Positions 5,494 through 52,349 of a stretch of DNA of 52,349 nucleotides are shown here, one piece after another; the stretch's first letter is position 1, and every line of letters begins with the position of its first letter. Location: IMG/VR virus record IMGVR_UViG_3300028898_000107; one strand, given 5' to 3'. Below the pieces are notes generated by a model. It saw nothing but the letters and a program-made list of their open reading frames with translations, searched no databases and had not been told where the DNA came from. This DNA is from a virus. Both the position numbers and the translations under genes were made by a program.

Positions 5494-6206
5494 TCAGCCT
5501 AAAAGGCCGGCTATCTTGGTTCCTTCAACTGAAGCTCCTAGGGGAAGCTTGGAACCGTACTCCTTCCCCTCCCTCATGGCCGACCCCAGAACCGAGGAGC
5601 TTCTAGAGGATTTGGCCCTCCTCAGTTCTATTCCCTGGTCCTTTAGAAAAGCCATATTGAGTTCTATTTCAATCTTGTAGTAATCCGCCAGAACCAGGGA
5701 AGTCCCTGTGGACTCTGAGGTCTCAACCTCCTTCTGTTTTCTCATCTCCCAAACCCTAGTCTGGATCTGAGAAGCACCCCCTCCGAGAAGCTTCTCCTCC
5801 ACTCGGCCCCCATCCCCAGAGCTCTAGCTCTCTTTCCGGCCTCTCTCCTGACGGAAGAGACTAAGAACATAGAGAGTTCCATGGCGGTGACTGAGTTGGA
5901 TAGCTTTCCTACGAAATGGTGGTGGAGCATATTGCGAGTGGAGGACCTTTGGATATAGTACTTGCAGAAGAAGAGTTCTGCCACTGCTTTGCAAATATCC
6001 TTAGCCCAGGGTCTCCCATAGAAGATCTCTTCGGTATCAGTCCTCTTCTCCTCTTTAGGATTGATGTCGGACATCTCCAGGTTGTGCTTGGCGATTAGGT
6101 TGTAGGCCATTCTCAGGGCGTTGTCTCGTTCCCCTTCGGTAGCCGCCTCATTGTTGGCCAGGGCCAACAATTTGCGAATCTTGTCGATGATACGTTCTTC
6201 AGTCAT
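5494..6206 (-). pseudogene. DUF2786-type protein interrupted by a frameshift at a G5 run
   Basis: GGGAGA precedes ATG 6206. N-terminus IIDKIRKLLALANNEAATEGERDNAL. The frame stops at 5742, but the conserved C-terminal part (GASQIQTRVWEMRK...SLVLADYY...) continues in ORF 5494..5802. The switch is at the C5/G5 run 5777-5781. Confidence 0.6.
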
Positions 6207-6243
6207 GTAATTCTCCCGGTTGGTTGATGAATGATACAAGCCC

Positions 6244-6272
6244 ATCCTAAGACTAGTCGATGAGATTGTAAA
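6244..6272 (-). promoter_or_regulatory. sigma70-like promoter TTTACA-N17-TAGGAT
   Basis: Reverse complement is TTTACAatctcatcgactagtctTAGGAT. It lies in the 30-nt gap plus leader between the SNF2 and DUF2786 genes. It is a member of a repeated promoter-leader cassette. Confidence 0.65.
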
Positions 6273-6275
6273 TGG

Positions 6276-7721
6276 TCAATCTTGAAGTTTCTTCAAGATG
6301 CTCTTCACCAGGTCAAACCCGTCTCGAACCGATCCCAGTATCCCCTCATCAACCGTACCCCTAGCCACCAGGTGGAGTAGGGACACTGATCCCCCACTCC
6401 TGGCGATCACTCGGGCCTTGGCCTGCTCATAGTCAATCCCGCTTTGGGTGTAGCTGTGGAAGATGAGGGTACGGGCTCGGCTCAGGTCAATTGAGATCCC
6501 CGCTCGCTGCTGTACCACACAGACGTCTGCTCGTCCGTTCATGAAGGCCTTCTTTGAATCCTCTCGCTCGGAGTTCTTCATCCCTCCCCGGATAGAAGTT
6601 GAGCTTCGTCCTTGTTTTTTCAACAGGCCCAGGATGGCGTCTAGCTCATACCGGAATTTGGCTATGATCACCAGGGGACAGTCCTTAGGGTACTCCTCCA
6701 GAAGCTCGGAAAGGGCGTCTAGGCGGTCCTTTCCTAGGGATTGGTTGTGGACTACAGAGCAGTCATCCGGATCTCTTAGAGGGAGGAATCCGCCTGCTAT
6801 CTGCTGTAGCCTAAGCGCCTGGGTTAGGATGATGGAGGCGGAGACTTCCTGATCTCTAACCATTGTCTTGAGCTCTTCCTCCATTTCCAGGTAGTGCCTC
6901 AGGGCGGGATTCGTCAGGTCGAAGTAGAAGTCCTGGACTTGCTCGACTGGAAAACCCCCCGCCTGCTCACGGTCCAGCATAAAGGCAACGGACTGGATCT
7001 TCTCGTTCATCTCCTCCAGCCGATGGAAGCTTGCCGGCTTGTGGCCTCCGAAACCCCATGACCTAACATACCGATTGAGGAATCCCTCCCCTTCGTGTTT
7101 ATCATACCGATCATGCCAGATGGTCCCGAAGATACTCGGATCAAGAAATTTGTATTGAGAGAAGGCATCTGTGGGCTTGGACATGAAGGAGCCGGTCAGT
7201 ATGTTGCGGTACTTCGCCCTTCTTCCTAGGGTATGTAAGGCCCCTGACTGTTTGGAAGCGTGGTTCTTAAACCGATGGGATTCATCCACGGTCACCATAC
7301 AGGGATTGGATTTGTAGAGCCACTTCTTGATACGCCAGGTGGCCTCCGGGTTCATGATCATGATATGTAACTTCCCAGGGATAGGCTTGAAGGACTTCAT
7401 GGAGAGCTTTCTCTCATCTGCCTTCCCCTCCAGGATGGTCACCTCGTGTGGAAGGTCTAGCGTTGCACGGATCTCATCTTTCCACACCTCCTTGGCAATA
7501 GAGGGACAGACCACAATCCACAGGTCAATCTGCTTTCTCTTTCTACGATAGCCCGCGACGGAGATGGCCACCCGAGTTTTCCCTAGGCGGGGGGCCATGA
7601 GTAATGCGAAGTTCGGGTGCTCGACCCCGAATTGAGCAGCTCGTAGCTGATAGCCCCGTAGAGTCCCTTTGATCCCGAACCTCTCTTGGACCCGCTTAGT
7701 CAGTGAGTGCTTTGGGGGCAT
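6276..7721 (-). CDS. SNF2-family DEAD/H helicase
   Basis: LRGYQL, MAPRLGKT (Walker A), TVDESHRFKN (DExH) and C-terminal helicase motifs. Start is uncertain (ATG 7721 or 7760). Confidence 0.85.
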   Translation of the reverse strand: MPPKHSLTKRVQERFGIKGTLRGYQLRAAQFGVEHPNFALLMAPRLGKTRVAISVAGYRRKRKQIDLWIVVCPSIAKEVWKDEIRATLDLPHEVTILEGKADERKLSMKSFKPIPGKLHIMIMNPEATWRIKKWLYKSNPCMVTVDESHRFKNHASKQSGALHTLGRRAKYRNILTGSFMSKPTDAFSQYKFLDPSIFGTIWHDRYDKHEGEGFLNRYVRSWGFGGHKPASFHRLEEMNEKIQSVAFMLDREQAGGFPVEQVQDFYFDLTNPALRHYLEMEEELKTMVRDQEVSASIILTQALRLQQIAGGFLPLRDPDDCSVVHNQSLGKDRLDALSELLEEYPKDCPLVIIAKFRYELDAILGLLKKQGRSSTSIRGGMKNSEREDSKKAFMNGRADVCVVQQRAGISIDLSRARTLIFHSYTQSGIDYEQAKARVIARSGGSVSLLHLVARGTVDEGILGSVRDGFDLVKSILKKLQD

Positions 7722-11730: not shown

Positions 11731-11759
11731 ATTATAACCCAAATGGGTAGGAGTTAAAA
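11731..11759 (-). promoter_or_regulatory. candidate promoter TTTTAA-N17-TATAAT
   Basis: Reverse complement is TTTTAActcctacccatttgggtTATAAT, in the 50-nt gap between the polymerase and exonuclease genes. Confidence 0.4.
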
Positions 11760-14258
11760 CTCCCACTTCTCCCCAATACCCCATGGACCTACCTCAAAAT
11801 CCGCCACCAGGGGGACGGTCATCTTGATCTTGAATACCGTCAGCAGTTGAGGATCCTCCATGATACCTTTGACCTGGGGTATTATCTCACCTAAGTACTC
11901 CGTCCTGATCCACATGAGGATGGAGTCGTGGACCTCTCCCACAATCCTCAGTTGCTCCGGGTCGAAGGTGTCATGTATCTCCACCATGGCCATCGCCTTG
12001 AGGTCTCCTGACCCGAATCCTTGAACTGGACTGTTGATGGCCTGGCGCTCAGCCTCCTGTTGAATGGTCTTGTCAATACTATACACCCCTGGGAGTCTAC
12101 GCAGTCTTCCGCTTAGTGAGGCTACCTCTCCGAACAGTCTCACGGTTCTTCGCATCCTTTCGTGCCATGAGGACAAGGAGCTATAGACCTCAAAGAATCT
12201 CTCTCGGTATTTCTTGGACTGCTCATCGGAGAAGATCACTCCGTAGTTGTCTCGGGCATAATCCTTGAACTTCTTCCACCACATCCCATACAGGAAGCCG
12301 AAGTTGACGGGCTTGCCCATCTTCCGTTGTTCTTTGGTGAGCTTCCCGGGATCTATCCCTGTTATCTCAGAGGCGGTGGCGGAATGGATGTCTCCGCCAG
12401 TCTGGAAGATCATCATCATCCTTTGGTCTCCGGATAGCATGGCCGCTAGCCTCAGCTCTATTTGAGAATAGTCAGCTACCACCAGTGTCCACCCCGGAGG
12501 AGCGGTGATGTGGGACCTGATGGAGGGATCTCTCGGGACCTGGTGAAGTCGAGAGGCATAGCGCCCTGTGACCGTCCCATGCAGTTTTGTGGATAGGTAT
12601 AGGTATGGGCCGTGCATCAACTCCTTCCATCCGAGAACATAGGTGGATAGATTCTTCTCCACTCCTCGGATCTTCACCATCAACTCAGCCACAGGAGACT
12701 GGTCCTTTAGTCTCATCAGGACCGACTCCGAGGTGCTGGGCTCTCCCTTAGGAGTCTTTTCCAGAATGGGTAGTCCTAAGGCCTCAAACAAAAAGCCTCC
12801 TACTTGAGCAGGAGAACCCCAATTTACCTCATCAACTCCATTGTCCCTGGCGATCTCATTCAGCTCACAGAGCAATTCGTCTCTCTCATGGATGAGCCTC
12901 TTCTCGGTCTTACCCAGTAGAGAAAGATCCACATAGAGGCCATTGGCCTCGATACTCTCGAACATCCGGGCGGATCTCATGACCAGCTGATAGAACAGTC
13001 GGCGGAGGGAGTGGTTTTGAAGAATCCTCTTCCTGAAGATATAGTAGAGCTTTAGGGTCCAATAAACGTCTTCGCATCCGTAACGATAGAAGGGCTCCAG
13101 TTCACCTAGCCCCAATTTGGTTTTCAAGTCGACGTCGTAGGCCGGAGCATCGCATTCAGCTACGGCTACTTCCTTGAGCCCATGAGGGCTGTTCTCATCC
13201 AAGGTGTGATGGGCCAGCATCCCATCGAAGTCCAGGAAGAACTTTACTCCATAGACCTTAGTTAGCCACCGGTTGTCGAATTTCCCGTTCCAGGCTACCG
13301 CCTTGAGCTTTAGTTCCCTTTGAAGGTCCACTAAGGTTTCGATGAACATCCTCTGCTGAGAATGCTTTCCCTTCCATGGGGAGTCCCTAACCTCTAATGG
13401 GATGGAGAAGTTTCTCCCTGAAGCCAGTCCTATCTGAAGGGAGTTGATAGCGGACGGTCCTTCAAATCCTTCTCTACCAAACTTCACCTTAAAGCGAGGA
13501 GCATTCTCATCCAGTCCTGTGGTCTCACAGTCGAAGGAGAACTCAGGGCTCTGGGAAAACTCCTCGATGAAGGAGTTCCATTGTCCTAGAGTCCGGATGA
13601 CCTCGTAGTGTATCGGGTCTTGAACTAGGTTATCTCCTCTCACCAGCTTTCCAAATCTCATCAGATCTCCCCTAAGGGCCGGAAGCTTGCTGGGATCTCG
13701 TAGAGCCATGGCCGGATGGAAAGTGGGGAAGAGGGTGTAGCCGGGCTGTTCGATTGGCTGGCCATGTAGCTCGGTGATCTTCCCTTTATGGAGACTCTTG
13801 AGAGCACTCGCCCCTAGAGAGAGAATGAACTGAGGGGTAACGGAATGAATCTCCTTTGTCAGGTACTGCTTACACACCTTGAGCTCAGAGGCCGATGGGG
13901 AGCCCCCCTCCGGCGGCTTACACTTCACGGAATGGGTGATATAACAGTCGGATAGTTCTACCCCAGCCTCCTCTAGAAGCTCCCTTAGGAGCTTACCTGG
14001 CGGGCCTCCCATGAGCTTTCCTGTGGAGTCTGCTGCCTGAGTGGGGGCCTCTGTCACCACCATGACGCTAGCCCTTGCGGGACCTTGACCCCACATGCAG
14101 ACGGTCTCAGCGGACTCCCATAACCCACACTGGCTGCAGTTAGGGTCTCTCTCCTCAGTGTGACGAGTCAGACGTCTCTTGTTTGGTGAAGCATTCAACG
14201 ATGACTCCTGAGGACCGGAGGAGCTCAATACCTTCCGTTTTACGGTATGGGGTTTCAT
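11754..14258 (-). CDS. family-4 uracil-DNA-glycosylase domain fused to family A DNA polymerase (3'-5' exo + pol)
   Basis: N-terminus CSQCGL...MVVTEAP...KCKPP...TFHPA (UDG4-like). Then an exonuclease domain (FDCETTGL), followed by pol motifs DYSQIELR, RKMGKPVNFGFLYG and VHDS. Start is uncertain (ATG 14258, or TTG 14198 after AGGAG). Confidence 0.85.
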   Translation of the reverse strand: MKPHTVKRKVLSSSGPQESSLNASPNKRRLTRHTEERDPNCSQCGLWESAETVCMWGQGPARASVMVVTEAPTQAADSTGKLMGGPPGKLLRELLEEAGVELSDCYITHSVKCKPPEGGSPSASELKVCKQYLTKEIHSVTPQFILSLGASALKSLHKGKITELHGQPIEQPGYTLFPTFHPAMALRDPSKLPALRGDLMRFGKLVRGDNLVQDPIHYEVIRTLGQWNSFIEEFSQSPEFSFDCETTGLDENAPRFKVKFGREGFEGPSAINSLQIGLASGRNFSIPLEVRDSPWKGKHSQQRMFIETLVDLQRELKLKAVAWNGKFDNRWLTKVYGVKFFLDFDGMLAHHTLDENSPHGLKEVAVAECDAPAYDVDLKTKLGLGELEPFYRYGCEDVYWTLKLYYIFRKRILQNHSLRRLFYQLVMRSARMFESIEANGLYVDLSLLGKTEKRLIHERDELLCELNEIARDNGVDEVNWGSPAQVGGFLFEALGLPILEKTPKGEPSTSESVLMRLKDQSPVAELMVKIRGVEKNLSTYVLGWKELMHGPYLYLSTKLHGTVTGRYASRLHQVPRDPSIRSHITAPPGWTLVVADYSQIELRLAAMLSGDQRMMMIFQTGGDIHSATASEITGIDPGKLTKEQRKMGKPVNFGFLYGMWWKKFKDYARDNYGVIFSDEQSKKYRERFFEVYSSLSSWHERMRRTVRLFGEVASLSGRLRRLPGVYSIDKTIQQEAERQAINSPVQGFGSGDLKAMAMVEIHDTFDPEQLRIVGEVHDSILMWIRTEYLGEIIPQVKGIMEDPQLLTVFKIKMTVPLVADFEVGPWGIGEKWEF

Positions 14259-14670
14259 ATATCACCTTCTTGATTCCGGAGTTCCGGATGATTGATGCAC
14301 ACTGTATGCACGGAGCGTGAGTAGAATAGAGGGAATCTCCCAGCAGCGGAAGACGACCCCCTATCACTCGGACTAGGAAGTCCATGGCATCCGTATTATT
14401 GACCACCCCATACAGAGAATCCAGCTCTACTCCCAGGGCTGAGGCAATAGCATTCATCTCAGCATGTACGGTGGAAGTACATGGGCTCTGAGGATTGCAA
14501 ATATAAGGAGAGCAGTGAGGCAGTCCTCGAGGAGCTCCGCTATACCCTGAGCTTCGAATGGTCCTACCCTCTTTGGCCACTACAGCTCCCACATTAAGTC
14601 TCAGGCAGGTAGACCTCTTGGCAGCTTCCCTGGCCATTCCCATGAACATCTCCTCTCTGGAGATCCTCAT
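14155..14670 (-). CDS. dCMP deaminase
   Basis: Zinc motifs VHAEMNAI and PCIQCA. ATGA coupling to the ligase gene. Confidence 0.85.
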   Translation of the reverse strand: MRISREEMFMGMAREAAKRSTCLRLNVGAVVAKEGRTIRSSGYSGAPRGLPHCSPYICNPQSPCTSTVHAEMNAIASALGVELDSLYGVVNNTDAMDFLVRVIGGRLPLLGDSLYSTHAPCIQCASIIRNSGIKKVIYETPYRKTEGIELLRSSGVIVECFTKQETSDSSH

Positions 14671-15545
14671 AAGTCCTCCCTGAACCCCAAGAAGGTAGGG
14701 AACCTAGGGGCATCCTTACTCCCTGTGGGAAAGTACTTGAACTTAACCACTCGGCCCAGGGTACTATTCCGATTATCCCAGATGTCCTTTCGAAGACTGT
14801 CGTCGAATCCCGACCCGATGGAGAAGTCTACTCCTGTATACGTCCCATTGATCCCTTTGACCAGGAGAGCCCCCAAGGTGTTCTTCCCCACCATACCCGC
14901 CTTGTGGTTACTACGCTCTATCCTCCCAAGGTTGTCACGACGAGCTTCATTGGAGTTATGCATCTGCTCCTCGAATCCGATGACCTGAGCCTCCGCATCA
15001 CAGAACCTCTTGAGCTTCATCAGTCCTTGTTCACGTAAGGTAGAGCGTCCTTGCTTATAGGCCCCCTGTGGGTCTCGGAGCATTACCCCCTCATACCCCT
15101 GGGTCAACCATCTATTCTCTAGCTCGATCAACTCCTGTGGGCTCCTAATCACCTGGTGTTCTACCAGCTGAATATACCTATCTCTCTTGGTAGACTTCCT
15201 CTGGGCGGAGGCCAATCTTCCTTCAAACCCCTCGGAAATCGAAAAATCGTCGAAGACATAAAACACCGCCGCTGGGTATCCATCTCGAGACCTAACGGCT
15301 GAGGTGGTGTTCAAGAAGGCCCTGGGGCTGCAGGGGTCTCCTAAGATCAACTCACCGTCTAGTCCTTCCAGGTCCTCACCACAGAACATGTCTTGAAGAT
15401 GCCTGTTCGGGATGGGCTTGAGATTTCTGGAGACCAGCACCCCGTCGAGTACAAGAGCCCTGATTCCGTCCAGCTTGGGGGAAGCTAAGAGCGGATAGCT
15501 AAGGTCCTCTATAGAGTCAACAGTGGCTGACAGCATGGGCTTCAT
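14667..15545 (-). CDS. ATP-dependent DNA ligase
   Basis: Adenylation motif SPKLDGIRAL and EGVMLR motifs. 292 aa (T7-ligase size). Confidence 0.85.
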   Translation of the reverse strand: MKPMLSATVDSIEDLSYPLLASPKLDGIRALVLDGVLVSRNLKPIPNRHLQDMFCGEDLEGLDGELILGDPCSPRAFLNTTSAVRSRDGYPAAVFYVFDDFSISEGFEGRLASAQRKSTKRDRYIQLVEHQVIRSPQELIELENRWLTQGYEGVMLRDPQGAYKQGRSTLREQGLMKLKRFCDAEAQVIGFEEQMHNSNEARRDNLGRIERSNHKAGMVGKNTLGALLVKGINGTYTGVDFSIGSGFDDSLRKDIWDNRNSTLGRVVKFKYFPTGSKDAPRFPTFLGFREDL

Positions 15546-16372
15546 GTTCTCTCCTTTATCAATAACCGATAGTCATTCTCGAAGCAGTGGAGGGAGGTGG
15601 TGTGCATGGTGAAGAACCCAGGATTAACCAAACTCCACCCGTTAGGATCTCGCTTCCTGAGCTCATCCAGGACCCAGAGAAGAAGACGAACCGTCAAGTA
15701 GATGTCATCTCGAAAATGACGAACTAGATCACAGCTTCGGAGCCAGTAGGTAACGTGGAGGTAGTTTCTGCGACGGATGAAATGGTACCCCAGGGAGCAC
15801 GGAACCCGGCCACCTCCTGCCCCTCCCGTATCCTCAGGAAAGAAGATGGGGAGATAGGCTTGACGTGTATGTGGCTCCCTGAGCAGGAGACTCACCACAT
15901 CATTGAGATCCCCGTAGGATTCTCGTATCCCCCGGTGCCCAGGATGAAAGGAGTTCTCCAGGATCTCTGCGCACTCAATCGGATTTTGGGTGGGGCCAAG
16001 AGTACCGGCGAACTTGGGCCAGTATCTCTCTGCATAGGAGTGGTTGAACATACCGCTCTCGTCCAGGAACTTGGCCGCGGACTTTCCATAGGGCCAGTTC
16101 TCCCATTCAGTTCCAGGATTGAGTGGGTATCCACAGACCCTCTCCTGGAAGTGATTGTCTGCCCAGGGGAGGTTCGGCTTGATGTCCCCCCCTAAGACCG
16201 AGAGGTCTTCCGTGTATACCTGAGCCTTAAGGGTATAGTTGAGCAGCTCCCAGGTCCTCATCTCAGGCTTCGAGGAAATGTCCACCCCCTGCCAACTCTC
16301 GGTGTGAACCGATTGACCGATGGCAGCTAAGGAATTCACAGCCCGGTCTATAGCTAATCCGAAGAGGCTCAT
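15542..16372 (-). CDS. thymidylate synthase (ThyA)/dCMP-hydroxymethylase-fold enzyme, paralog 1
   Basis: HTRQAYLPIFFPED...RVPCSLGYHFIRRRNYLHVTYWLRSCDLVRHFRDDIY...HTTSLHCFEND aligns by eye with the ThyA core (RRIIVSAW..PCHAFFQFY..QRSCDVFLGLPFN..THLY). ATG 16372 is ATGA-coupled. Confidence 0.65.
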   Translation of the reverse strand: MSLFGLAIDRAVNSLAAIGQSVHTESWQGVDISSKPEMRTWELLNYTLKAQVYTEDLSVLGGDIKPNLPWADNHFQERVCGYPLNPGTEWENWPYGKSAAKFLDESGMFNHSYAERYWPKFAGTLGPTQNPIECAEILENSFHPGHRGIRESYGDLNDVVSLLLREPHTRQAYLPIFFPEDTGGAGGGRVPCSLGYHFIRRRNYLHVTYWLRSCDLVRHFRDDIYLTVRLLLWVLDELRKRDPNGWSLVNPGFFTMHTTSLHCFENDYRLLIKERT

Positions 16373-17295
16373 TTGATCCACCCCATTAGGACGAACATAG
16401 GGACCTTGAACCCTGCGGCATTCCTGTGGCCTCCCCCTCCGAAGTGCTTAGCAATCTCACTCACGTCATATTCACCATTGGACCGAATTGAACAGTGAGC
16501 CTCATCTCCGCTCTGGGGAAGATACCAGACGAGGCCGAAGGTCCCAGAGGAATCGGCCAACTCATGACCAAGTTCGGACTGGTGCAGGCTGGCATTGACG
16601 GCCAGCCCATGAACCTCTAGAGAGTTGCGTTCATCATATGGGTCTCCACAGTGCTTCCAGATACAGCACCCTCTGGCCAGCTTCGCCATCGACTTCACGT
16701 TCGAATCCTGAGCGGCCAGAATGGCACGTCCGTCTGTCTTAATGAGGCTCAGGAGAGGGAGGTTCAACAATGGCCTCCATTGCTCGAAACTCCAGGGCCT
16801 CAGGGAGCTCAGTCCAACGTGCAATTCCTTACTGCCCTCCAGCTTGAATTGCCAGCGATCTCGATCGTCAATGTGACGGATCAGCATCGGAATCTCTACT
16901 CCGAGGTGAAAGTGCTCCCAAGCGAGTAATGCCCCAGAGCGGTTGTCATCCAGGGTAATGAGATGGGGGGAGTACGGAGACCCCGAGTAGATCATCCCTT
17001 TCTTGTACTCACCGCACCACATCTCGAAGGCGGTCTTGTGATGGTCCAGCCAGACCACTCGATGGGCGGATTGGAAGACCTTGTCCATGATAGGCTTACA
17101 GAAACTGAAATCCAGGATGAGGACTTCTCTTCCTTGAACTAAGGCCTCCACTGCAGGTTCATCTCCTTCTGCCCAATCCCCTTCCCCGTAGGACATGGGT
17201 AGGTAATCCGCCTCCTCCCCCAACTTCATCCAAGCCGCGAAGGCTGCCCCAAATCCGTCCGTACACTTGTCGTGATAGATCACTAATGGTCTCAT
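16369..17295 (-). CDS. DHH/DHHA1-family phosphoesterase
   Basis: N-terminal YHDKCTDGFGAA, DHH-like LDHH, C-terminal GGGHRNAAGF. Confidence 0.75.
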   Translation of the reverse strand: MRPLVIYHDKCTDGFGAAFAAWMKLGEEADYLPMSYGEGDWAEGDEPAVEALVQGREVLILDFSFCKPIMDKVFQSAHRVVWLDHHKTAFEMWCGEYKKGMIYSGSPYSPHLITLDDNRSGALLAWEHFHLGVEIPMLIRHIDDRDRWQFKLEGSKELHVGLSSLRPWSFEQWRPLLNLPLLSLIKTDGRAILAAQDSNVKSMAKLARGCCIWKHCGDPYDERNSLEVHGLAVNASLHQSELGHELADSSGTFGLVWYLPQSGDEAHCSIRSNGEYDVSEIAKHFGGGGHRNAAGFKVPMFVLMGWIK

Positions 17296-17597
17296 ACAAG
17301 TCCTCCCTGATAATCAAATGTTGCAATGATCTTCGAATCGTCAGGGTGTGACTCCACCCCTAACGTCTCAGATCCTCCATAACAGATAAGCTCTGTCAAG
17401 CTGATGAACCCCGCGCTCCGGATCTCCACTGAGACCTCTACTCCCAGGTCTCGGTATGAGGAAACCATAGAGCGTCGAAGGCTATTATATACCACAGCGT
17501 GGACTAGAGTATCAGGAAAGATTATCGGAACTAGTTGATTGGAACCCGAGTCCGGAAACCTCGGAGAGACTCGAAGGGACATCATCAAGTACTTCAT
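17292..17597 (-). CDS. hypothetical protein
   Basis: 101 aa. ATGA-coupled on both sides within the nucleotide-metabolism operon. Confidence 0.6.
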   Translation of the reverse strand: MKYLMMSLRVSPRFPDSGSNQLVPIIFPDTLVHAVVYNSLRRSMVSSYRDLGVEVSVEIRSAGFISLTELICYGGSETLGVESHPDDSKIIATFDYQGGLV

Positions 17598-18376
17598 TCT
17601 TCGTCCTCCTCATCCATCGATACCTCTCCCTTCAACCCTTTCAGTCTATGCTTGAGGAGGTCGAACTTCTTTGGAGAGATATGTTCCCTAGCATACTCAA
17701 ACATCTTGACCCGAGTTCGATAGGAGTAGTTGTGAGTTTCCTTGAAGAATTTACTCGTAGCCAATCCGCAGGTTCGATAGAACCGAGGATCCCAGTCCTC
17801 CAGGTGATCAAAGAACCCCACAGGGTCCTCTTCGAACCTCAGGAAGATAGGCATGAATACCGCCGAGAGATAGACGTTAGCAAACTTGAACCGGATCATC
17901 GAGGGGCAGAACCCCACCCGTTCGAAGAGAGGGGGAAGTACCTCGGCGAAGAAGATGAGGTCCGCCAGGAATTTCTGGGTGGCCTCAGTGCTTCGATAGT
18001 AGATGTCCACCGTGCAGGATGGGGTGGACCCGGGGGCATGGGTGATTACCATGTTCTGCATGCAAAACCCCTGTGACCTCGAATCCTTCGCTCCATTCTT
18101 CAATTGGATGGACACACTGGTGTGGGGCTTGTCCTGGCGACCTTCCAACTTTTGCATGGCCGCTTCTACCGCTTCCTCATCCCAGTAATTACGAGCCAGC
18201 TGGCGGTACTTTCCCCTGGTGTATCCTATGTCCTCAAAGGAAATCCCCTCGGAGGCCGCCAGCGCCTCGTATGGGAGCTCCAGCGATAGGTCTTGGGCGA
18301 TCTTCCTAACCCCCGAGATCAGTAGGGTCTCCGCTTCCGCTACCGACCAGATGAACTCCCTCCAGTGGTTAATCAT
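17594..18376 (-). CDS. second, highly divergent thymidylate-synthase-fold-like protein (function unknown)
   Basis: QGFCMQNMVITH...CTVDIYYRSTEATQKFLADLIFF...FKFANVYL mirrors PCxxxxQFxV...YQRSxDxxLGxPFN...THxY by eye. ATG 18376 overlaps the thyX stop. Confidence 0.45.
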   Translation of the reverse strand: MINHWREFIWSVAEAETLLISGVRKIAQDLSLELPYEALAASEGISFEDIGYTRGKYRQLARNYWDEEAVEAAMQKLEGRQDKPHTSVSIQLKNGAKDSRSQGFCMQNMVITHAPGSTPSCTVDIYYRSTEATQKFLADLIFFAEVLPPLFERVGFCPSMIRFKFANVYLSAVFMPIFLRFEEDPVGFFDHLEDWDPRFYRTCGLATSKFFKETHNYSYRTRVKMFEYAREHISPKKFDLLKHRLKGLKGEVSMDEEDEE

Positions 18377-19028
18377 GTGAGGTTCCCCTGTTGATGGCGG
18401 GATGCGAATGCTCAGGATCCAAAGACTCCCCAAACAGCACAGGCCACCGGCTAGCGAACTCCCAACCCAGCGGAACCATGACCTGTCTCATCTGTGGGTG
18501 GGCTTCCTTGGCAGTCCGAAGCTTCAGTATGTGACGCCATTCACGGGGATTGGAGGTCACCACTATCTCGGTCTTGAGAGAGTTTGGAAGTACGGACCGA
18601 GCCTCCTGCGGGGAGGCGCCCATCCGGAGCATCCCCAGGTAATGGGACTCTGCCAGAAGGCAGAGGGACTTCCATTCCTTGTACAAGTCACTATCAGGGC
18701 TCCAGAAGAAGGGCTCGATGAAGGTCACCTCTCCCCCGAACTTGTCCTTTCCATAGTTGCAGTACCGAGTGGATTCTTGGGAGAAGCTAGCCAGACGATG
18801 TCGAACCAACTCATGGGTGACTCCCCGGTCACAGATGAGGTGAACAGTGATAGCCCCATGCTCCAGAACTGAGTCATGTTTGGAGTCGATGAGTCGTTCA
18901 ATCAGAGGAACCGCTGAGCCCTCTTGGATCTTGTCTTCACTTTTGTAACAGACTCGACCACCTCTCTCGATGGTTGAGAGAAGATGGCTATGGTCGAGTA
19001 TTTGAAAAGAGGGTTGAATAATCTTCAT
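18369..19028 (-). CDS. thyX: flavin-dependent thymidylate synthase ThyX
   Basis: ThyX signature RHRLASFSQESTRY. GGAGA precedes ATG 19028. Confidence 0.85.
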   Translation of the reverse strand: MKIIQPSFQILDHSHLLSTIERGGRVCYKSEDKIQEGSAVPLIERLIDSKHDSVLEHGAITVHLICDRGVTHELVRHRLASFSQESTRYCNYGKDKFGGEVTFIEPFFWSPDSDLYKEWKSLCLLAESHYLGMLRMGASPQEARSVLPNSLKTEIVVTSNPREWRHILKLRTAKEAHPQMRQVMVPLGWEFASRWPVLFGESLDPEHSHPAINRGTSHD

Positions 19029-19029
19029 G

Positions 19030-19491
19030 TTAATCTCCGTGAGTGGACCATGGGCCTTCGCCCAGAATCCGGGAATGGTTAGGTGGTTCCCATCCTTCGG
19101 GCTTGATGACATCCAGAGCGCTCCCGCGTTTGGACTGGTCGGGACTGGTAGCTCGAACCTTGGACATGTTGGCCCGCTGTACCTCCTCCCACAGGGCCGG
19201 CCAGGGAAGTCCCATCATGTGGGCGGTTCCGTGTATCACATAGGCCAGATCTATGAGGGCATCTGCGGCTCCTTCCATGTCGCCTTTAGAGTGAGCTAGG
19301 TGGAACTCCGCCAGCTCCTCGTGCATGAACCGGAACCGGAACTCAAAGGTCTTAGGACCCAGAAAGGAAGGGTCGGAAGCTACTGGGACCTTGAACTTGT
19401 GATGAAAGAGAGCTACGTCCAAATGGTCCCTGTTGGTTGAAACCATAGCTTCCTGGATATATCCTTCGAGGGTTGGGTGTTTAGGTTTCAT
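19030..19491 (-). CDS. all-alpha MazG/HisE-like nucleoside-triphosphate pyrophosphohydrolase
   Basis: RFRFMHEELAEF...AADALIDLAYVIHGTA pattern of MazG-like phage pyrophosphatases. Confidence 0.6.
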   Translation of the reverse strand: MKPKHPTLEGYIQEAMVSTNRDHLDVALFHHKFKVPVASDPSFLGPKTFEFRFRFMHEELAEFHLAHSKGDMEGAADALIDLAYVIHGTAHMMGLPWPALWEEVQRANMSKVRATSPDQSKRGSALDVIKPEGWEPPNHSRILGEGPWSTHGD

Positions 19492-19500
19492 GTTTTCTCC

Positions 19501-20013
19501 TTAGTGAATGGGTCCTTTAAGATGGGTCTCTACTAACCGCTGCAGTCCCAGATAATCGTGGGTCTCATAGTCGTAGGTGACCACCTCAAGGAACTGGTTG
19601 ATAAACTTGATGTGGGAGTCATAAGCTTGAATAAGCTTAAGCCCATTCTTCACCACTCCTTCCATTTGGTCTCGCTCTCCAAAGTTCAAGATGGTGGAGT
19701 TTTTAGGGCGGCAGTAGACCACTAGGGCCTTAATCCTCTCTAACTCCCTTAGCACATTCTCTTGATAGTACCTCTCCGGCCAGGAAGTTCCCCGACAGAT
19801 AGGGCCATAGACGGGCTCACTAATAACGGGGTGTCGGTCGAGGATGAGGGGGAAGTGCTTACTCAGCTCTACCATTCTTGTATTGAAGAAGGAGATGTCC
19901 GAGGTTCCTGAAGGTCTCTTCCGGTTATTAACAATCATCAGCTTGAGCCCATCGGCTAGTTTGGCCAGAACGGTGGACTTTCCTGTGTTGTCGCATCCTT
20001 CAACTATTATCAT
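19501..20013 (-). CDS. P-loop deoxynucleoside-monophosphate (thymidylate-like) kinase
   Basis: GGAGAG precedes ATG 20013. MIIVEGCDNTGKST P-loop, then DRHPVISEPVY. Confidence 0.65.
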   Translation of the reverse strand: MIIVEGCDNTGKSTVLAKLADGLKLMIVNNRKRPSGTSDISFFNTRMVELSKHFPLILDRHPVISEPVYGPICRGTSWPERYYQENVLRELERIKALVVYCRPKNSTILNFGERDQMEGVVKNGLKLIQAYDSHIKFINQFLEVVTYDYETHDYLGLQRLVETHLKGPIH

Positions 20014-45337: not shown

Positions 45338-46839
45338 TGGCCACAGCTGAAATCCTGCAAGAGTACCTGGTCAAGCTGGGTTTCCAGACGGATGCTATCT
45401 CCGCGAAGAAGCTAGAGGACACCCTCGGGGCGACCAACAAGAAGATCTTCGGAGTAGGAGTGGCCGTGGCCGGGATGGTCCTTGCGGCAGAGCGAGGGGT
45501 AGCTGCCTTCGCGGGAAAGATGGAGAGGCTCCACTACTCCTCGAAACTGACCGATACCTCTGTGGCTAAGCTACAGTCCTTGTCCTTCGCAGCTGAGCAG
45601 ATAGGGATCTCAGGAGAAGTAGCCTCGGGGATGGTACAGAAGTTAGCTCAAGACCTCAAGCTGATGCCCGGAACCTTGGGACTAGTAGAAGGAGCCTTCG
45701 GTATCAGTACGAAGGGAAAAGAGTCCGCAGATGTTTACTTCGAGCTTCTGGACAAGATGAAAGTGATGTCCCCAACCCTGGGGACCATGTGGGCTGAGAA
45801 ACTCTTCGGAATGGACCAGTCCACCTTTCTCCTGACCATGGGAAACCTTGACAAGCTCAAGGAGAAGTATCGAGAGCATCAACAGACCATCCGGAATACT
45901 GGAACGGATATGGATGAGGCCGCTAAGGTTCTCACCAATTACAACAACCAACTTAGAACTACGGAGGCTAATCTAGACCGTCTGGGGGTGGCCATGGCGA
46001 AAAACCTGGCTCCGACCTTTACCGCGATCAACAAGCAGCTTAATGTCACCCTGAGGTATTGGACCAAATTCTTAGGGGGCGACGTCAGCTCTTGGGAGGA
46101 CATGTTCCAGTTCTTCAAAGATATTCCAAAGGCCGCCGGCAAAGCCACATTGGCTACGGCAGGACTCCTTAACCCCTGGGGGAGTTGGAAGGACTATCAG
46201 AAATACTACTCAGAAGACTCTGGCGGTCGTCAAGCGGTTTCGGGGAAGATCAGGAGACCGCCCCAAGGAAAGCCCTCAGAGCGGGGGATTTATTCCTCAC
46301 TATCCTCACTGGGGTGGAGCCCTCATGAGGCCATAGGCATCATGGCGAATCTTCAGAAGGAGAGCGGATACGATCCTCGAGCAATAGGAGATGAGGGGAA
46401 AGCTTACGGTATTGCTCAATGGCATCCTGATCGTCAAAAGGACTTCCAAGAGAAATATGGAAAGAACATCCGAAGTTCTACCTTAGAGGAGCAGTTGCTC
46501 TTCCTTACACATGAACTTCGTGAAGGAAAAGAGCAAAAGGCGGGGTCACTATTACGAGGTGCCCAGAGCCCAGAAGAGGCTACTAGGATTCTAAGTCTTA
46601 GGTATGAAAGGCCCCAGGGAGGGTTAGCTGAGGCGACCATTAGGGAAAGGATGGCCAGTGCCTTAGGGGCGAGGCTCGGAGTATCTCCAGGAGGCAACGG
46701 ACAGCTGGTGCAGAATAACACCACCAATATCAACGTCTCAGGAACGGGGGCAGAAGCTACCGCTCGTGCTGTGGGAAGAGAGCAGTCCAGGGTGTTGTCT
46801 CAGGCCACTAGGGAGTTCGTAGGGAGACAAGCAGGATGA
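45337..46839 (+). CDS. tape measure protein with C-terminal lysozyme-like (tail lysozyme) domain
   Basis: Helical N-terminal two-thirds. C-terminal ...IMANLQKESGYDPRAIGDEGKAYGIAQWHPDRQ...LRYERP. Confidence 0.7.
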   Translation: MATAEILQEYLVKLGFQTDAISAKKLEDTLGATNKKIFGVGVAVAGMVLAAERGVAAFAGKMERLHYSSKLTDTSVAKLQSLSFAAEQIGISGEVASGMVQKLAQDLKLMPGTLGLVEGAFGISTKGKESADVYFELLDKMKVMSPTLGTMWAEKLFGMDQSTFLLTMGNLDKLKEKYREHQQTIRNTGTDMDEAAKVLTNYNNQLRTTEANLDRLGVAMAKNLAPTFTAINKQLNVTLRYWTKFLGGDVSSWEDMFQFFKDIPKAAGKATLATAGLLNPWGSWKDYQKYYSEDSGGRQAVSGKIRRPPQGKPSERGIYSSLSSLGWSPHEAIGIMANLQKESGYDPRAIGDEGKAYGIAQWHPDRQKDFQEKYGKNIRSSTLEEQLLFLTHELREGKEQKAGSLLRGAQSPEEATRILSLRYERPQGGLAEATIRERMASALGARLGVSPGGNGQLVQNNTTNINVSGTGAEATARAVGREQSRVLSQATREFVGRQAG

Positions 46840-47504
46840 ACGTGATAGGGGTAGTCAGTGCCGGGCTTCAGCTGGGCTTTAACTCCCGGATCGAGAAGCG
46901 GAAGAGGGGGCTCTACAGCTCAACCGAACAGCTAATCAGCAGAGCCCAGGTGACCATCAGTGAACTCCACACGGATGAGCTGGAGATTACCGATCATCCT
47001 GTGGACTCAGGGGCTCAAGTTTCCGACCATGCCTTCATGCATCCATCGGAGGTAGTTCTTCAACTGGCCTGGTCGAATAGCCCATCCTCTGCCGGAAGCC
47101 TGGTCAATCCGGCCTTGGGAACGGCAGTAGCGGTCAATTCTGTGGTTCGATCCATAACCGACACCGTTCAACGAGCCTTGGCTCTGCAAAATGCCGTACA
47201 GAGCGCCCTCTCTGGGGTGACTCCCGATGAGGTCAAAGGAGTCTATCAAGACTTAGTGGATCTTCAAAAATCCCGAGAGCCCTTCACCATTTACACGGGG
47301 AAGAGGAAATATACCGACATGCTCATCAAGTCATTGGCCACACAGACTGATGAGAAAACGGAGAATGCCCTGTTCATCACCATGACCTGTCGACAGGTCA
47401 TTCGGGTGTCCTCCCGAGCGGTCACTTTGTCCAAAGCCGCTATGGCTCTTCCTGAACTGATGGAACCTTTAGTCTCAGGAAGAAAGAATGCTATACCCCA
47501 ATAA
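46836..47504 (+). CDS. distal tail / baseplate hub-associated protein
   Basis: ITDHPVDSGAQVSDHAFMHPSEVVLQLAWS resembles the N-terminal domain of Mu gp43-type proteins. Confidence 0.45.
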   Translation: MNVIGVVSAGLQLGFNSRIEKRKRGLYSSTEQLISRAQVTISELHTDELEITDHPVDSGAQVSDHAFMHPSEVVLQLAWSNSPSSAGSLVNPALGTAVAVNSVVRSITDTVQRALALQNAVQSALSGVTPDEVKGVYQDLVDLQKSREPFTIYTGKRKYTDMLIKSLATQTDEKTENALFITMTCRQVIRVSSRAVTLSKAAMALPELMEPLVSGRKNAIPQ

Positions 47505-51714: not shown

Positions 51715-52349
51715 ATGGCCACTAATAAGATCTACCCGTTTGCACAGGACCCTGGCGCAAACGTCCTCACTGATGCACAATATGCTGCCCTCACGGCCCT
51801 ACTGGCTGACGGGTTCCTGTCGGGGATAGCTTCCTCTGCTCAGATGAATAAGGTGTGGAGACAGAGCTCGGTCATCTCCGCGGCCGTAGCTCAGTTCATG
51901 GCTGATAACCAAGCTACGAACATTGATGACTCCCTCACTATAGCCAACCTGGCCACATACCTGAAGAATGCCATCAACGGGGCGGGAACCACACAGGCCC
52001 AGTTCGACAATACGACGAAGATGGCGACGACGGCGTTTGTTAAAGGAGCTCAAGGCAATACGAGCGGATTGAATTCTGCAAATGCGAATGCGAATTTGAC
52101 TCTAGGTCAGTTGGGCAACGTGTTCACGTATTACGGCTCGACAAGTGGCCAGCAACTTTCCTTGCCGGATGCGGCGATTGTACCGGCCGGATATGGTTAT
52201 TGGGTGGTCAATCAAGCCTCTGTCCCTGTCGCATTGAAGGGTTCCGGCGCACAGAACATCAACGCGAATACACCATCTGGAGCGTCTGCCGCCAATACGA
52301 TGAACCTGTCGCCGGGTGATTCTGTATTCATCAGCAGCAACGGCGCATC
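51715..52349 (+). CDS. tail fibre protein, N-terminal part (open to the window end; continues at 142..517 in the circular genome)
   Basis: AAGGAG precedes ATG 51715. My own translation gives MATNKIYPFAQDPGANVLTDAQY...QFDNTTKMATTAFV... There is no stop before 52349. It is not in the ORF track because it is open-ended. Confidence 0.8.
   Translation, partial: MATNKIYPFAQDPGANVLTDAQYAALTALLADGFLSGIASSAQMNKVWRQSSVISAAVAQFMADNQATNIDDSLTIANLATYLKNAINGAGTTQAQFDNTTKMATTAFVKGAQGNTSGLNSANANANLTLGQLGNVFTYYGSTSGQQLSLPDAAIVPAGYGYWVVNQASVPVALKGSGAQNINANTPSGASAANTMNLSPGDSVFISSNGA
52209..52349. repeat. terminal direct repeat, copy 2 (identical to 1..141)
   Basis: Read directly. Confidence 0.95.

Follow-up and report, generated by a model that had tools for sequence, protein, structure and literature searches.

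Gene content of the replication locus

The window analyzed here is the whole 52,349-nucleotide stretch of the IMG/VR virus record IMGVR_UViG_3300028898_000107. It represents a complete phage genome of ~52.2 kb, circularly closed or terminally redundant, with a 141-bp exact direct repeat (positions 1-141 = 52209-52349). The replication genes are located on the minus strand and include nine co-oriented genes at 14155-20013. Two of these, designated p3 (15542-16372, 276 aa) and p6 (17594-18376, 260 aa), encode divergent proteins with the thymidylate synthase (TS) fold. Judging by sequence comparison, the p6-p3 pair is the conserved unit of the locus and belongs to a module comprising genes of a kinase, a nucleoside triphosphate (NTP) pyrophosphatase, p6, p3, a deaminase and a family A DNA polymerase (PolA). 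With moderate confidence, this widespread phage nucleotide-precursor module most likely serves to replace deoxycytidine (dC) with C5-modified dC before replication. The genes of the locus are as follows, from the upstream end.

19501-20013, minus strand: P-loop deoxynucleoside monophosphate (dNMP) kinase, thymidylate-kinase-like, 170 aa (PHROG 761, E 3e-18; weak Pfam Thymidylate_kin match across the P-loop)
19030-19491, minus strand: all-alpha MazG/PRA-PH NTP pyrophosphatase (PF01503, E 1e-16)
18369-19028, minus strand: ThyX, flavin-dependent thymidylate synthase (PF02511, E 2e-44)
17594-18376, minus strand: p6, very divergent TS-fold protein, 260 aa (predicted structure; PHROG 34294, function unknown)
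17292-17597, minus strand: 101-aa open reading frame (ORF) of unknown function (PHROG 3988, unknown function, E 1e-12; no Pfam match)
16369-17295, minus strand: DHH/DHHA1 phosphoesterase, NrnA-like (PHROG 4771, E 4e-62; DHHA1, E 4e-7)
15542-16372, minus strand: p3, TS homolog, 276 aa (PHROG 160 'thymidylate synthase', E 1e-24)
14667-15545, minus strand: ATP-dependent DNA ligase (PF01068, PF14743; PHROG 114, E 2e-63)
14155-14670, minus strand: zinc deaminase of the deoxycytidine monophosphate (dCMP) deaminase family, with HAE and PCxxC motifs (PF00383, E 4e-20; MafB19-deam, E 1e-8)
11754-14258, minus strand: PolA with an N-terminal domain similar to uracil-DNA glycosylase (UDG) and a 3'-5' exonuclease (PF03167, PF01612, PF00476)

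Gene identities were assigned by family scans against Pfam, PHROG and NCBIfam, which confirmed seven of the nine genes (all but p3 and p6), and independent gene calls on identical public contigs match all nine coordinates. The initial annotation had described nine co-oriented genes encoding these proteins, mostly coupled by ATGA overlaps and including two TS-fold proteins in addition to ThyX; this description agrees with the family scans, the independent gene calls and the predicted structures presented below. ATGA overlaps are present at five of the eight junctions, namely, p6/101-aa ORF, 101-aa ORF/DHH, DHH/p3, p3/ligase and ligase/deaminase. The genes of ThyX and p6 overlap by 8 nt, those of the MazG-like protein and ThyX are separated by 1 nt, and the kinase and MazG genes by a spacer of 9 nt that includes GGAG. 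For p6, p3 and ThyX, the true starts lie downstream of the longest-ORF starts, giving proteins of 260, 276 and 219 aa, respectively; with the corrected starts, the ThyX gene does not overlap the MazG gene.

Downstream, the conserved module ends with the PolA gene, which directly follows the nine-gene set and whose long ORF and the end of the deaminase gene overlap. The UDG-superfamily domain (PF03167, E 4e-24) lies N-terminal to the 3'-5' exonuclease, and the same fusion was found in related loci, e.g., L007 and L121.

The TS homolog p3

The AlphaFold (AF2) model of p3 has a predicted local distance difference test score (pLDDT) of 90.5, and its Foldseek comparison with the PDB retrieved TS, MilA, T4 dCMP hydroxymethylase (dCH) and AfhB with E values of ~1e-10 and template modelling (TM) scores of 0.6-0.66. 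Sequence models of TS recognize p3 poorly: the score against PF00303 is 13.2 bits, below the gathering cut-off of 24.3, and that against the NCBIfam TS model is 25 bits versus a cut-off of 174. The residue register was fixed by profile alignments to the TS of L. casei and E. coli, the sequence of E. coli ThyA being verified against the PDB.

Equivalents of the ThyA residues E58, W83, Y94, R126, C146, R166, S167, D169 and H207 are invariant among 92 unique p3 homologs. The same sequences share fixed states that differ from ThyA, namely, L143R, H147S/T, G173H, N177D, R127Q and Y209F. Thus, p3 retains the TS fold together with Cys146, Arg166/Ser167, Asp169, Glu58 and Tyr94 of ThyA, and departs from ThyA in its PF00303 score and at Asn177, where Asp223 is invariant. 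The clade appears, accordingly, to have its own fixed active-site signature, new relative to the known pathway.

Replacement of Asn177 by Asp is the accepted determinant that switches the TS substrate from dUMP to dCMP, and in MetaGPA data the best discrimination between cytosine-modified and unmodified viral contigs was given by positions 177 and 147. Both TS-fold proteins of the window carry invariant Asp at the position of ThyA Asn177, and therefore their target is expected to be a cytosine nucleotide. The initial annotation had proposed a C5-modified pyrimidine of the 5-hydroxymethylcytosine (hmC) or 5-hydroxymethyluracil (hmU) type; its cytosine part is retained, and hmU is disfavored by the Asp residues. 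An hmU-type or another uracil-based pathway, for which the dCMP deaminase and the dUTPase-like pyrophosphatase could supply dUMP, is very improbable: Asp, rather than Asn, is invariant in both proteins at the position reading uracil O4/N3, and ThyX, the maker of ordinary dTMP, is present. Thymidine hypermodification, which combines an Asn177 hydroxymethylase with the 5-hydroxymethyluracil DNA kinase 5-HMUDK and aGPT-Pplase, likewise disagrees with Asp177 in both proteins. Pfam and PHROG scans of the nine genes and the other ORFs of the replication half detected neither the 5-hmdU DNA kinase nor the aGPT-Pplase family.

The chemistry of p3 is less clearly indicated by its residues. At position 143, acidic residues accompany hydroxymethylation and hydrophobic ones methylation; p3 has Asp at 177 as in T4-type hydroxymethylases, but the L143 position is occupied by invariant Arg189 instead of Asp or Glu. 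The substitution D169N, the mark of flavin-dependent 5-hydroxy-dCMP synthases, is absent, with invariant Asp215 at this position. The combined features suggest that p3 is a folate-type TS homolog specific for a cytosine nucleotide, a putative dCMP C5-methyl- or hydroxymethyltransferase.

The divergent TS-fold protein p6

The AF2 model of p6 has a pLDDT of 94.4. In the Foldseek comparison with the PDB, the best match was AfhB (PDB 9iqu), followed by TS, MilA and T4 dCH, with E values of 3e-5 to 1e-3, a probability of 1.0 and TM scores to TS-fold structures of ~0.45-0.5; the viral structure library BFVD gave the same TS-fold outcome. No match of p6 was found among Pfam, NCBIfam or PDB sequences, and searches of the PDB with the p6 sequence and profile gave nothing relevant.

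All 78 unique p6 homologs share residues K56, Y64, C105, R128, E131 and D139. The spacing between R128 and D139 equals that between R166 and N177 of ThyA, so that the base-reading residue follows the Arg by 11 positions. Features of the TS/dCMP-hydroxymethylase superfamily present in p6 are the fold, the nucleophilic Cys on the strand preceding the Arg-Ser strand and the base-reading residue. The Arg-Ser phosphate motif is retained together with the nucleophilic Cys in both p3 and p6; this is the catalytic network on which the initial annotation had made its assignment depend. Alignments of the p6 profile with the p3 profile and with E. coli ThyA by hhalign are in the expected register, both non-significant alone. 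At the position of D169N, p6 has invariant Glu131, which separates it from 5-hydroxy-dCMP synthases.

The folate-binding segment of ThyA comprises residues ~66-110, with Trp80, Trp83 and Tyr94. Between strands 2 and 3, where ThyA has ~95 residues, the p6 model contains only two helices. Judged by this reading of the secondary structure of the model, the folate-binding segment seems to be missing from p6.

The p6 family comprises 395 clusters at 50% identity among 1.84 billion representatives, and nearly all members are stand-alone proteins of 240-290 aa. A HMMER scan of these representatives for domain fusions yielded none that was informative. Two apparent fusions were rejected: a 418-aa p6 match has merely terminal extensions, and a 366-aa p3 match is an assembly duplication. 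The C-terminus of p6 (17594-17620) is an acidic tail, MDEEDEE, which is longer in some homologs, e.g., P0314, and may be a protein-interaction handle.

The invariant Cys, Arg, Glu and Asp suggest catalysis by p6 on a cytosine nucleotide. The favored role for this seemingly catalytically equipped and cytosine-specific protein is that of a second C5 enzyme using a non-folate cofactor or the product of p3. As a tentative mechanism, to which a low probability is given, p6 would bind a cytosine nucleotide, the invariant Cys would attack C6, and reaction with a non-folate cofactor or co-substrate, or conversion of the p3 product, would follow.

Conservation of the module across phages

The comparison covered about 110 related loci, of which 30 from IMG/VR were anchored on p6 and 80 on p3. 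Their conserved core consists of the kinase, the all-alpha NTP pyrophosphatase, p6, p3, the dCMP-family deaminase and PolA. The order kinase, NTP pyrophosphatase, p6, p3, (DHH), (ligase), deaminase, PolA was found in all 30 p6-anchored loci and in most of the p3-anchored ones. The kinase heads the module in 59 of the 80 p3 loci; the deaminase followed by PolA is present in 67, and in most loci the deaminase gene lies directly upstream of PolA. Gene p6 accompanies p3 in 69 of the 80 loci; five of the misses are due to contig ends, so that p6 is present in 69 of the 75 loci that can be assessed. The p6 and p3 genes overlap in 37 of the 69 unique pairs, most commonly by exactly 4 nt. Because this linkage is nearly obligatory, p6 and p3 probably share a task.

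TS-fold enzymes are obligate dimers in which each subunit lends Arg126/127 to the active site of its partner. The main alternative for the role of p6, considered doubtful, is therefore that of an obligate partner of p3 in a heterodimeric TS-like enzyme, with folate catalysis in one subunit and nucleotide binding or regulation in the other. It is consistent with the single Arg followed by Gln that both proteins keep at the Arg126/127 position, with the adjacent and mostly translationally coupled genes, and with the apparent lack in p6 of the ThyA 66-110 segment (Trp80/Trp83, Tyr94), as read from the secondary structure of the model. However, at least six loci have p3 but not p6, and their p3 proteins retain all signature residues; p3 is therefore likely to be self-sufficient. 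In addition, a DHH gene separates p6 from p3 in the window and in several relatives, no natural p6-p3 fusion was found, and invariance of the putative nucleophile Cys and of the base-specifying Asp in p6 would be unusual for a non-catalytic subunit. The role of a second C5 enzyme is preferred for p6 in what follows.

ThyX, DHH, the 101-aa ORF and the ligase appear from their distribution to be accessory insertions outside the core. ThyX was found in only two of the 80 p3 loci, namely, L001 (MW202455) and the phage studied here, including copies, and the closest relative, L003, with p6 89% identical, does not contain it. DHH is present in eight p3 loci, where it either separates p6 from p3 or follows p3; the ligase is present in nine, and only the nearest relatives (L003, L004 and L007-L009) have the 101-aa ORF. 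The initial annotation had argued that a phage with ThyX needs no further TS-fold enzymes and had regarded DHH and the 101-aa ORF as possible pathway steps. Given this distribution, the co-occurrence with ThyX is incidental, and neither DHH nor the 101-aa ORF belongs to the core.

Among cultured phages of Proteobacteria, detectable p6 and p3 were found in Pseudomonas phages PMBT14, Almagne, Lebethron and STP12; Serratia phages Serbin, Tlacuache and Opt-155; Yersinia phage P744; and Brevundimonas phages. A group of Clostridium perfringens phages also carries the module with detectable p6 and p3. The module is thus common to phages of Proteobacteria, Firmicutes and Actinobacteria, the latter with a divergent protein in the p6 slot. 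In mycobacteriophage Muddy and many Gordonia phages, p3 is preceded by a hypothetical protein of 297-302 aa. Comparison of hidden Markov models (HMMs) linked neither Muddy gp47 nor gp43 of Gordonia phage Dre3 to p6, the only common motif being Cys-x19-Arg-x10-Asp, and membership of these actinophage proteins in the p6 family is treated as a lead.

In two of the six p6-less loci (L083, 4842-5963; L108, 2937-5099), the usual position of p6 directly upstream of p3 is occupied by a gene of C5 cytosine DNA methyltransferase (PF00145), in L108 split by an intein with a homing-endonuclease domain. No such methyltransferase was found in the p6-containing loci. These small numbers hint at functional substitution of p6 by another Cys-dependent enzyme acting on cytosine C5.

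Several relatives show variations of the module. A third, weaker p6-like paralog, carrying GPC/DFC and (F/Y)(S/R)(R/S)xE...D motifs, is encoded between p3 or the ligase and the deaminase in L010 (10545-11312), L033 (10115-10957), L082 (7338-7916) and L118 (6788-7480); therefore, TS-fold paralogs have expanded further within the module. In L121 (6001-12538), genes of a 418-aa p6-like protein, a p3-type TS and PolA are followed by those of a family 2 glycosyltransferase and a radical SAM protein, and the deaminase is absent. This arrangement may be a hypermodifying version of the module and hints at a hydroxyl acceptor on the base in some lineages. A subgroup of p3 (L086, L088, L098 and L119, ~5970-7370) is located outside the replication module, adjoining a gene of NT5C-type deoxypyrimidine 5'-nucleotidase and near genes of a MoxR-like AAA ATPase and a VWA/metallopeptidase pair, with no p6, kinase, deaminase or PolA nearby.

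Genes of GIY-YIG/NUMOD3 and HNH homing endonucleases were found repeatedly in relatives between p3, ligase, deaminase and PolA (e.g., L016, 1485-2171; L113, 10400-10876), and their insertion accounts for many gaps in the otherwise tight operon. Clustering of all ORFs of 120 loci for recurrent hypermodification genes yielded only homing endonucleases, exonucleases and a pyrimidine-dimer glycosylase.

Nucleotide-supply enzymes and other features of the genome

The nearest solved structure to the MazG-like pyrophosphatase is that of the Deinococcus MazG-like protein DR2231. The enzyme of the window is a putative dCTPase/dUTPase making dCMP and excluding dCTP from DNA, and the P-loop kinase is predicted to phosphorylate the modified dCMP. 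The deaminase would either supply dUMP for ThyX or convert modified dC nucleotides to dT nucleotides.

ThyX contains the Thy1 domain and the RHRxxS...SxR motif, with RHRLASFSQESTRY present, and scores 116.9 bits against the NCBIfam thyX equivalog TIGR02170 (cut-off 87.9). It is responsible for the conversion of dUMP to dTMP and represents an accessory insertion in the lineage of this phage. The DHH protein has a weak PDB match to NrnA and may convert short oligonucleotides or pAp-type substrates into 5'-mononucleotides.

Genes of glycosyltransferase, DNA C5-methyltransferase and a homolog of dihydrofolate reductase (DHFR) were not found in the window, and therefore no hypermodification is predicted for this phage; genes for glycosylation with arabinose or other sugars are absent from the window as well. 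Over the whole window, GCGC and CGCG occur at about one quarter of the level that base composition would predict, CCWGG is ~1.9-fold over-represented, CCGG and GGCC are near expectation, and the observed/expected ratio of CpG is 0.72.

Proposed pathway

The observed folds, conserved residues, synteny and co-occurrence suggest the following route, in which the substrates and products are putative and the modified base is a prediction. The MazG-like pyrophosphatase would hydrolyze dCTP, and also dUTP, to the monophosphate; p3, with Asp in place of Asn177, would add a one-carbon group to C5 of dCMP; the P-loop kinase would phosphorylate the product, and a host kinase would complete the triphosphate, which the phage PolA would incorporate into DNA. 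p6 would work with p3, as a second C5 enzyme using another cofactor or the product of p3, or else as a dimer partner of p3. In this phage, the deaminase would feed dUMP to ThyX. In those relatives that lack ThyX, its probable role is to form dT nucleotides out of the modified dC pool, as has been proposed for phage Xp12, a proven 5-methylcytosine (5mC) phage whose thymine label originates in the 5mC pool and for which dTTP formation by 5mC-selective deaminases has been proposed.

The likeness to T4 pointed out in the initial annotation, with an NTP pyrophosphatase, a TS homolog, a dNMP kinase and a deaminase, is borne out, and pre-replicative modification of a pyrimidine at C5 is its best reading. 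The likeliest product is 5-methyl-dC, followed by 5-hydroxymethyl-dC. Provided that a modification exists, somewhat less than half of the probability is assigned to the methyl derivative, about a third to the hydroxymethyl derivative, and the remainder to something else. Activity data on related neighborhoods point in the same direction: five of seven tested TS homologs from cytosine-modified contigs made 5mdCMP, and many deaminases of such contigs prefer 5mdCTP or 5hmdCTP (10.1101/2024.12.05.627091).

A number of observations weigh against replacement of dC. Arg at the L143 position of p3 fits neither the hydrophobic state associated with methylation nor the acidic state associated with hydroxymethylation, and His/Arg substitutions in the helix lining the folate site of ThyA make the cofactor of p3 uncertain. 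The residue mapping of p6 to ThyA is based on fold similarity and a short motif alignment that is non-significant alone. If all C had been replaced, a DNA C5-methyltransferase, as found in two p6-less loci, would serve no purpose. The correspondence between p3 and the TS homologs assayed in the MetaGPA studies is one of gene neighborhood. Finally, the literature yielded no data on base composition or restriction resistance of the cultured carriers PMBT14, Serbin, Tlacuache, P744 and Muddy.

The strongest rival, rated as rather unlikely, is an alternative thymidylate route in a phage with canonical DNA. In this case, p3 would convert dCMP to 5-methyl-dCMP, the deaminase would form dT nucleotides from the mono- or triphosphate, the kinase would be a thymidylate kinase, and the pyrophosphatase a dUTPase. 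Each core enzyme has a counterpart in dTTP synthesis, and the names given by annotators, namely, thymidylate kinase, dUTPase, thymidylate synthase and dCMP deaminase, correspond to this route. It is also favored by the relation of the pyrophosphatase to DR2231, by the origin of thymine label and the proposed role of 5mC-selective deaminases in Xp12, by the absence of any report of modified DNA from phages that carry a similar module and are well studied, e.g., mycobacteriophage Muddy, and by the methyltransferase genes in two p6-less loci, which imply unmodified C there. However, contigs with such a neighborhood are enriched in modified-cytosine fractions in the MetaGPA data, and a dedicated dNMP kinase and a dCTP/dUTP pyrophosphatase are needed equally for full replacement. 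In the phage studied, ThyX would make a second route to dTMP redundant, and p6 is left without explanation. On balance, replacement of dC by C5-modified dC is considered the most likely function of the module.

Modified cytosines let phages evade restriction enzymes and CRISPR, and enzymes of cytosine modification have become tools, as in 5hmC chemistry and with 5mC-selective deaminases. A previous unexpected clade of TS homologs proved to make 5-hydroxycytosine with flavin. The p6 clade is almost always accompanied by a cytosine-specific TS homolog across hundreds of phage lineages, several of which are cultured and tractable. If the tentative mechanism given above for p6 holds, the p6-p3 phages would carry an undescribed cytosine modification or a route to one, which would concern phages of Pseudomonas, Serratia, Yersinia, Brevundimonas and Clostridium, and perhaps also actinophages, e.g., Muddy, with gp47 in the p6 slot. 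If the p6-p3 pair makes something other than plain 5mC or 5hmC, it represents a new DNA base pathway; if it only makes thymidylate by a detour, the common phage annotation 'thymidylate synthase' has to be re-read.

Comparison with known systems

The gene order in Xp12 (L040, MT664984) is that of a protein annotated as a HAD-superfamily (haloacid dehalogenase) hydrolase, a TS homolog, dCMP deaminase and DHFR. The 'hydrolase (HAD superfamily)' at 46207-46980 is actually of the PRA-PH/MazG type (PF01503, E 7e-15) and homologous to the MazG-like protein of the window (E 1.6e-21). Accordingly, a pyrophosphatase, a TS homolog with N177D and a deaminase follow in the same order in both phages. The Xp12 TS, with Asp at 177, aligns to the p3 profile with an hhalign probability of 95.9%, but it was not found by tblastn at 1e-5 and is only remotely related to p3. 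Thus, Asp177, cluster content and gene order agree with a dCMP methyltransferase of the Xp12 type, whereas the enzyme homology is remote. In contrast to Xp12, which has one TS-fold protein and DHFR, the window contains p6 between the pyrophosphatase and p3, no detected DHFR homolog, a kinase upstream and PolA directly downstream.

Phage T4, with gp42, the dCTPase/dUTPase gp56, the dNMP kinase gp1, Cd and Td, shares with the window a pyrophosphatase, a TS-fold dCMP enzyme with Asp177, a kinase, a deaminase and a separate true TS, here ThyX; T4 dCH is among the Foldseek matches of both p3 and p6. The differences are Asp/Glu at the L143 position of T4-like hydroxymethylases versus Arg in p3, one dCMP-specific TS homolog versus two in the window, and the absence of glucosyltransferase from the window.

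The flavin-dependent 5-hydroxy-dCMP synthases, AfhB of phage HY126, RB69 gp48 and DLP3 gp80, are small TS-fold proteins that act on dCMP and use flavin in place of folate. AfhB is the top Foldseek match of p6 and among the top three of p3; however, D169N is absent from both proteins, and the TM-score to p6 is only ~0.5.

In cytosine-modified contigs of the MetaGPA studies (New England Biolabs), 70% of dCMP deaminases lie less than 3 kb from a TS gene, and the domains most often co-located with deaminases are TS, MafB19-deam, PRA-PH, DNA_pol_A and DNA_pol_A_exo1 (10.1101/2024.12.05.627091). The window contains all five domains, arranged just as compactly, and its deaminase gene thus has the kind of neighborhood from which 5mC-selective deaminases have been reported; the MetaGPA papers make no mention of a second TS-fold gene.

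Stenotrophomonas phage AXL3 contains ThyX, an N177D TS, an NTP pyrophosphatase, a kinase and a deaminase, and its DNA resists 35 of 37 restriction enzymes, i.e., all those tested with G/C in the site. AXL3 demonstrates that a phage can have ThyX alongside a cytosine-modifying TS homolog. It was considered as a p6-p3 phage and rejected, its TS being of another N177D type with Asp at 143 and p6 being absent.

The pathway proposed for the module is thus of a known kind, TS-homolog-based pre-replicative modification of cytosine of the Xp12/T4 type. What is new is a widespread, uncharacterized second TS-fold family, p6, together with a p3 clade that has its own signature.

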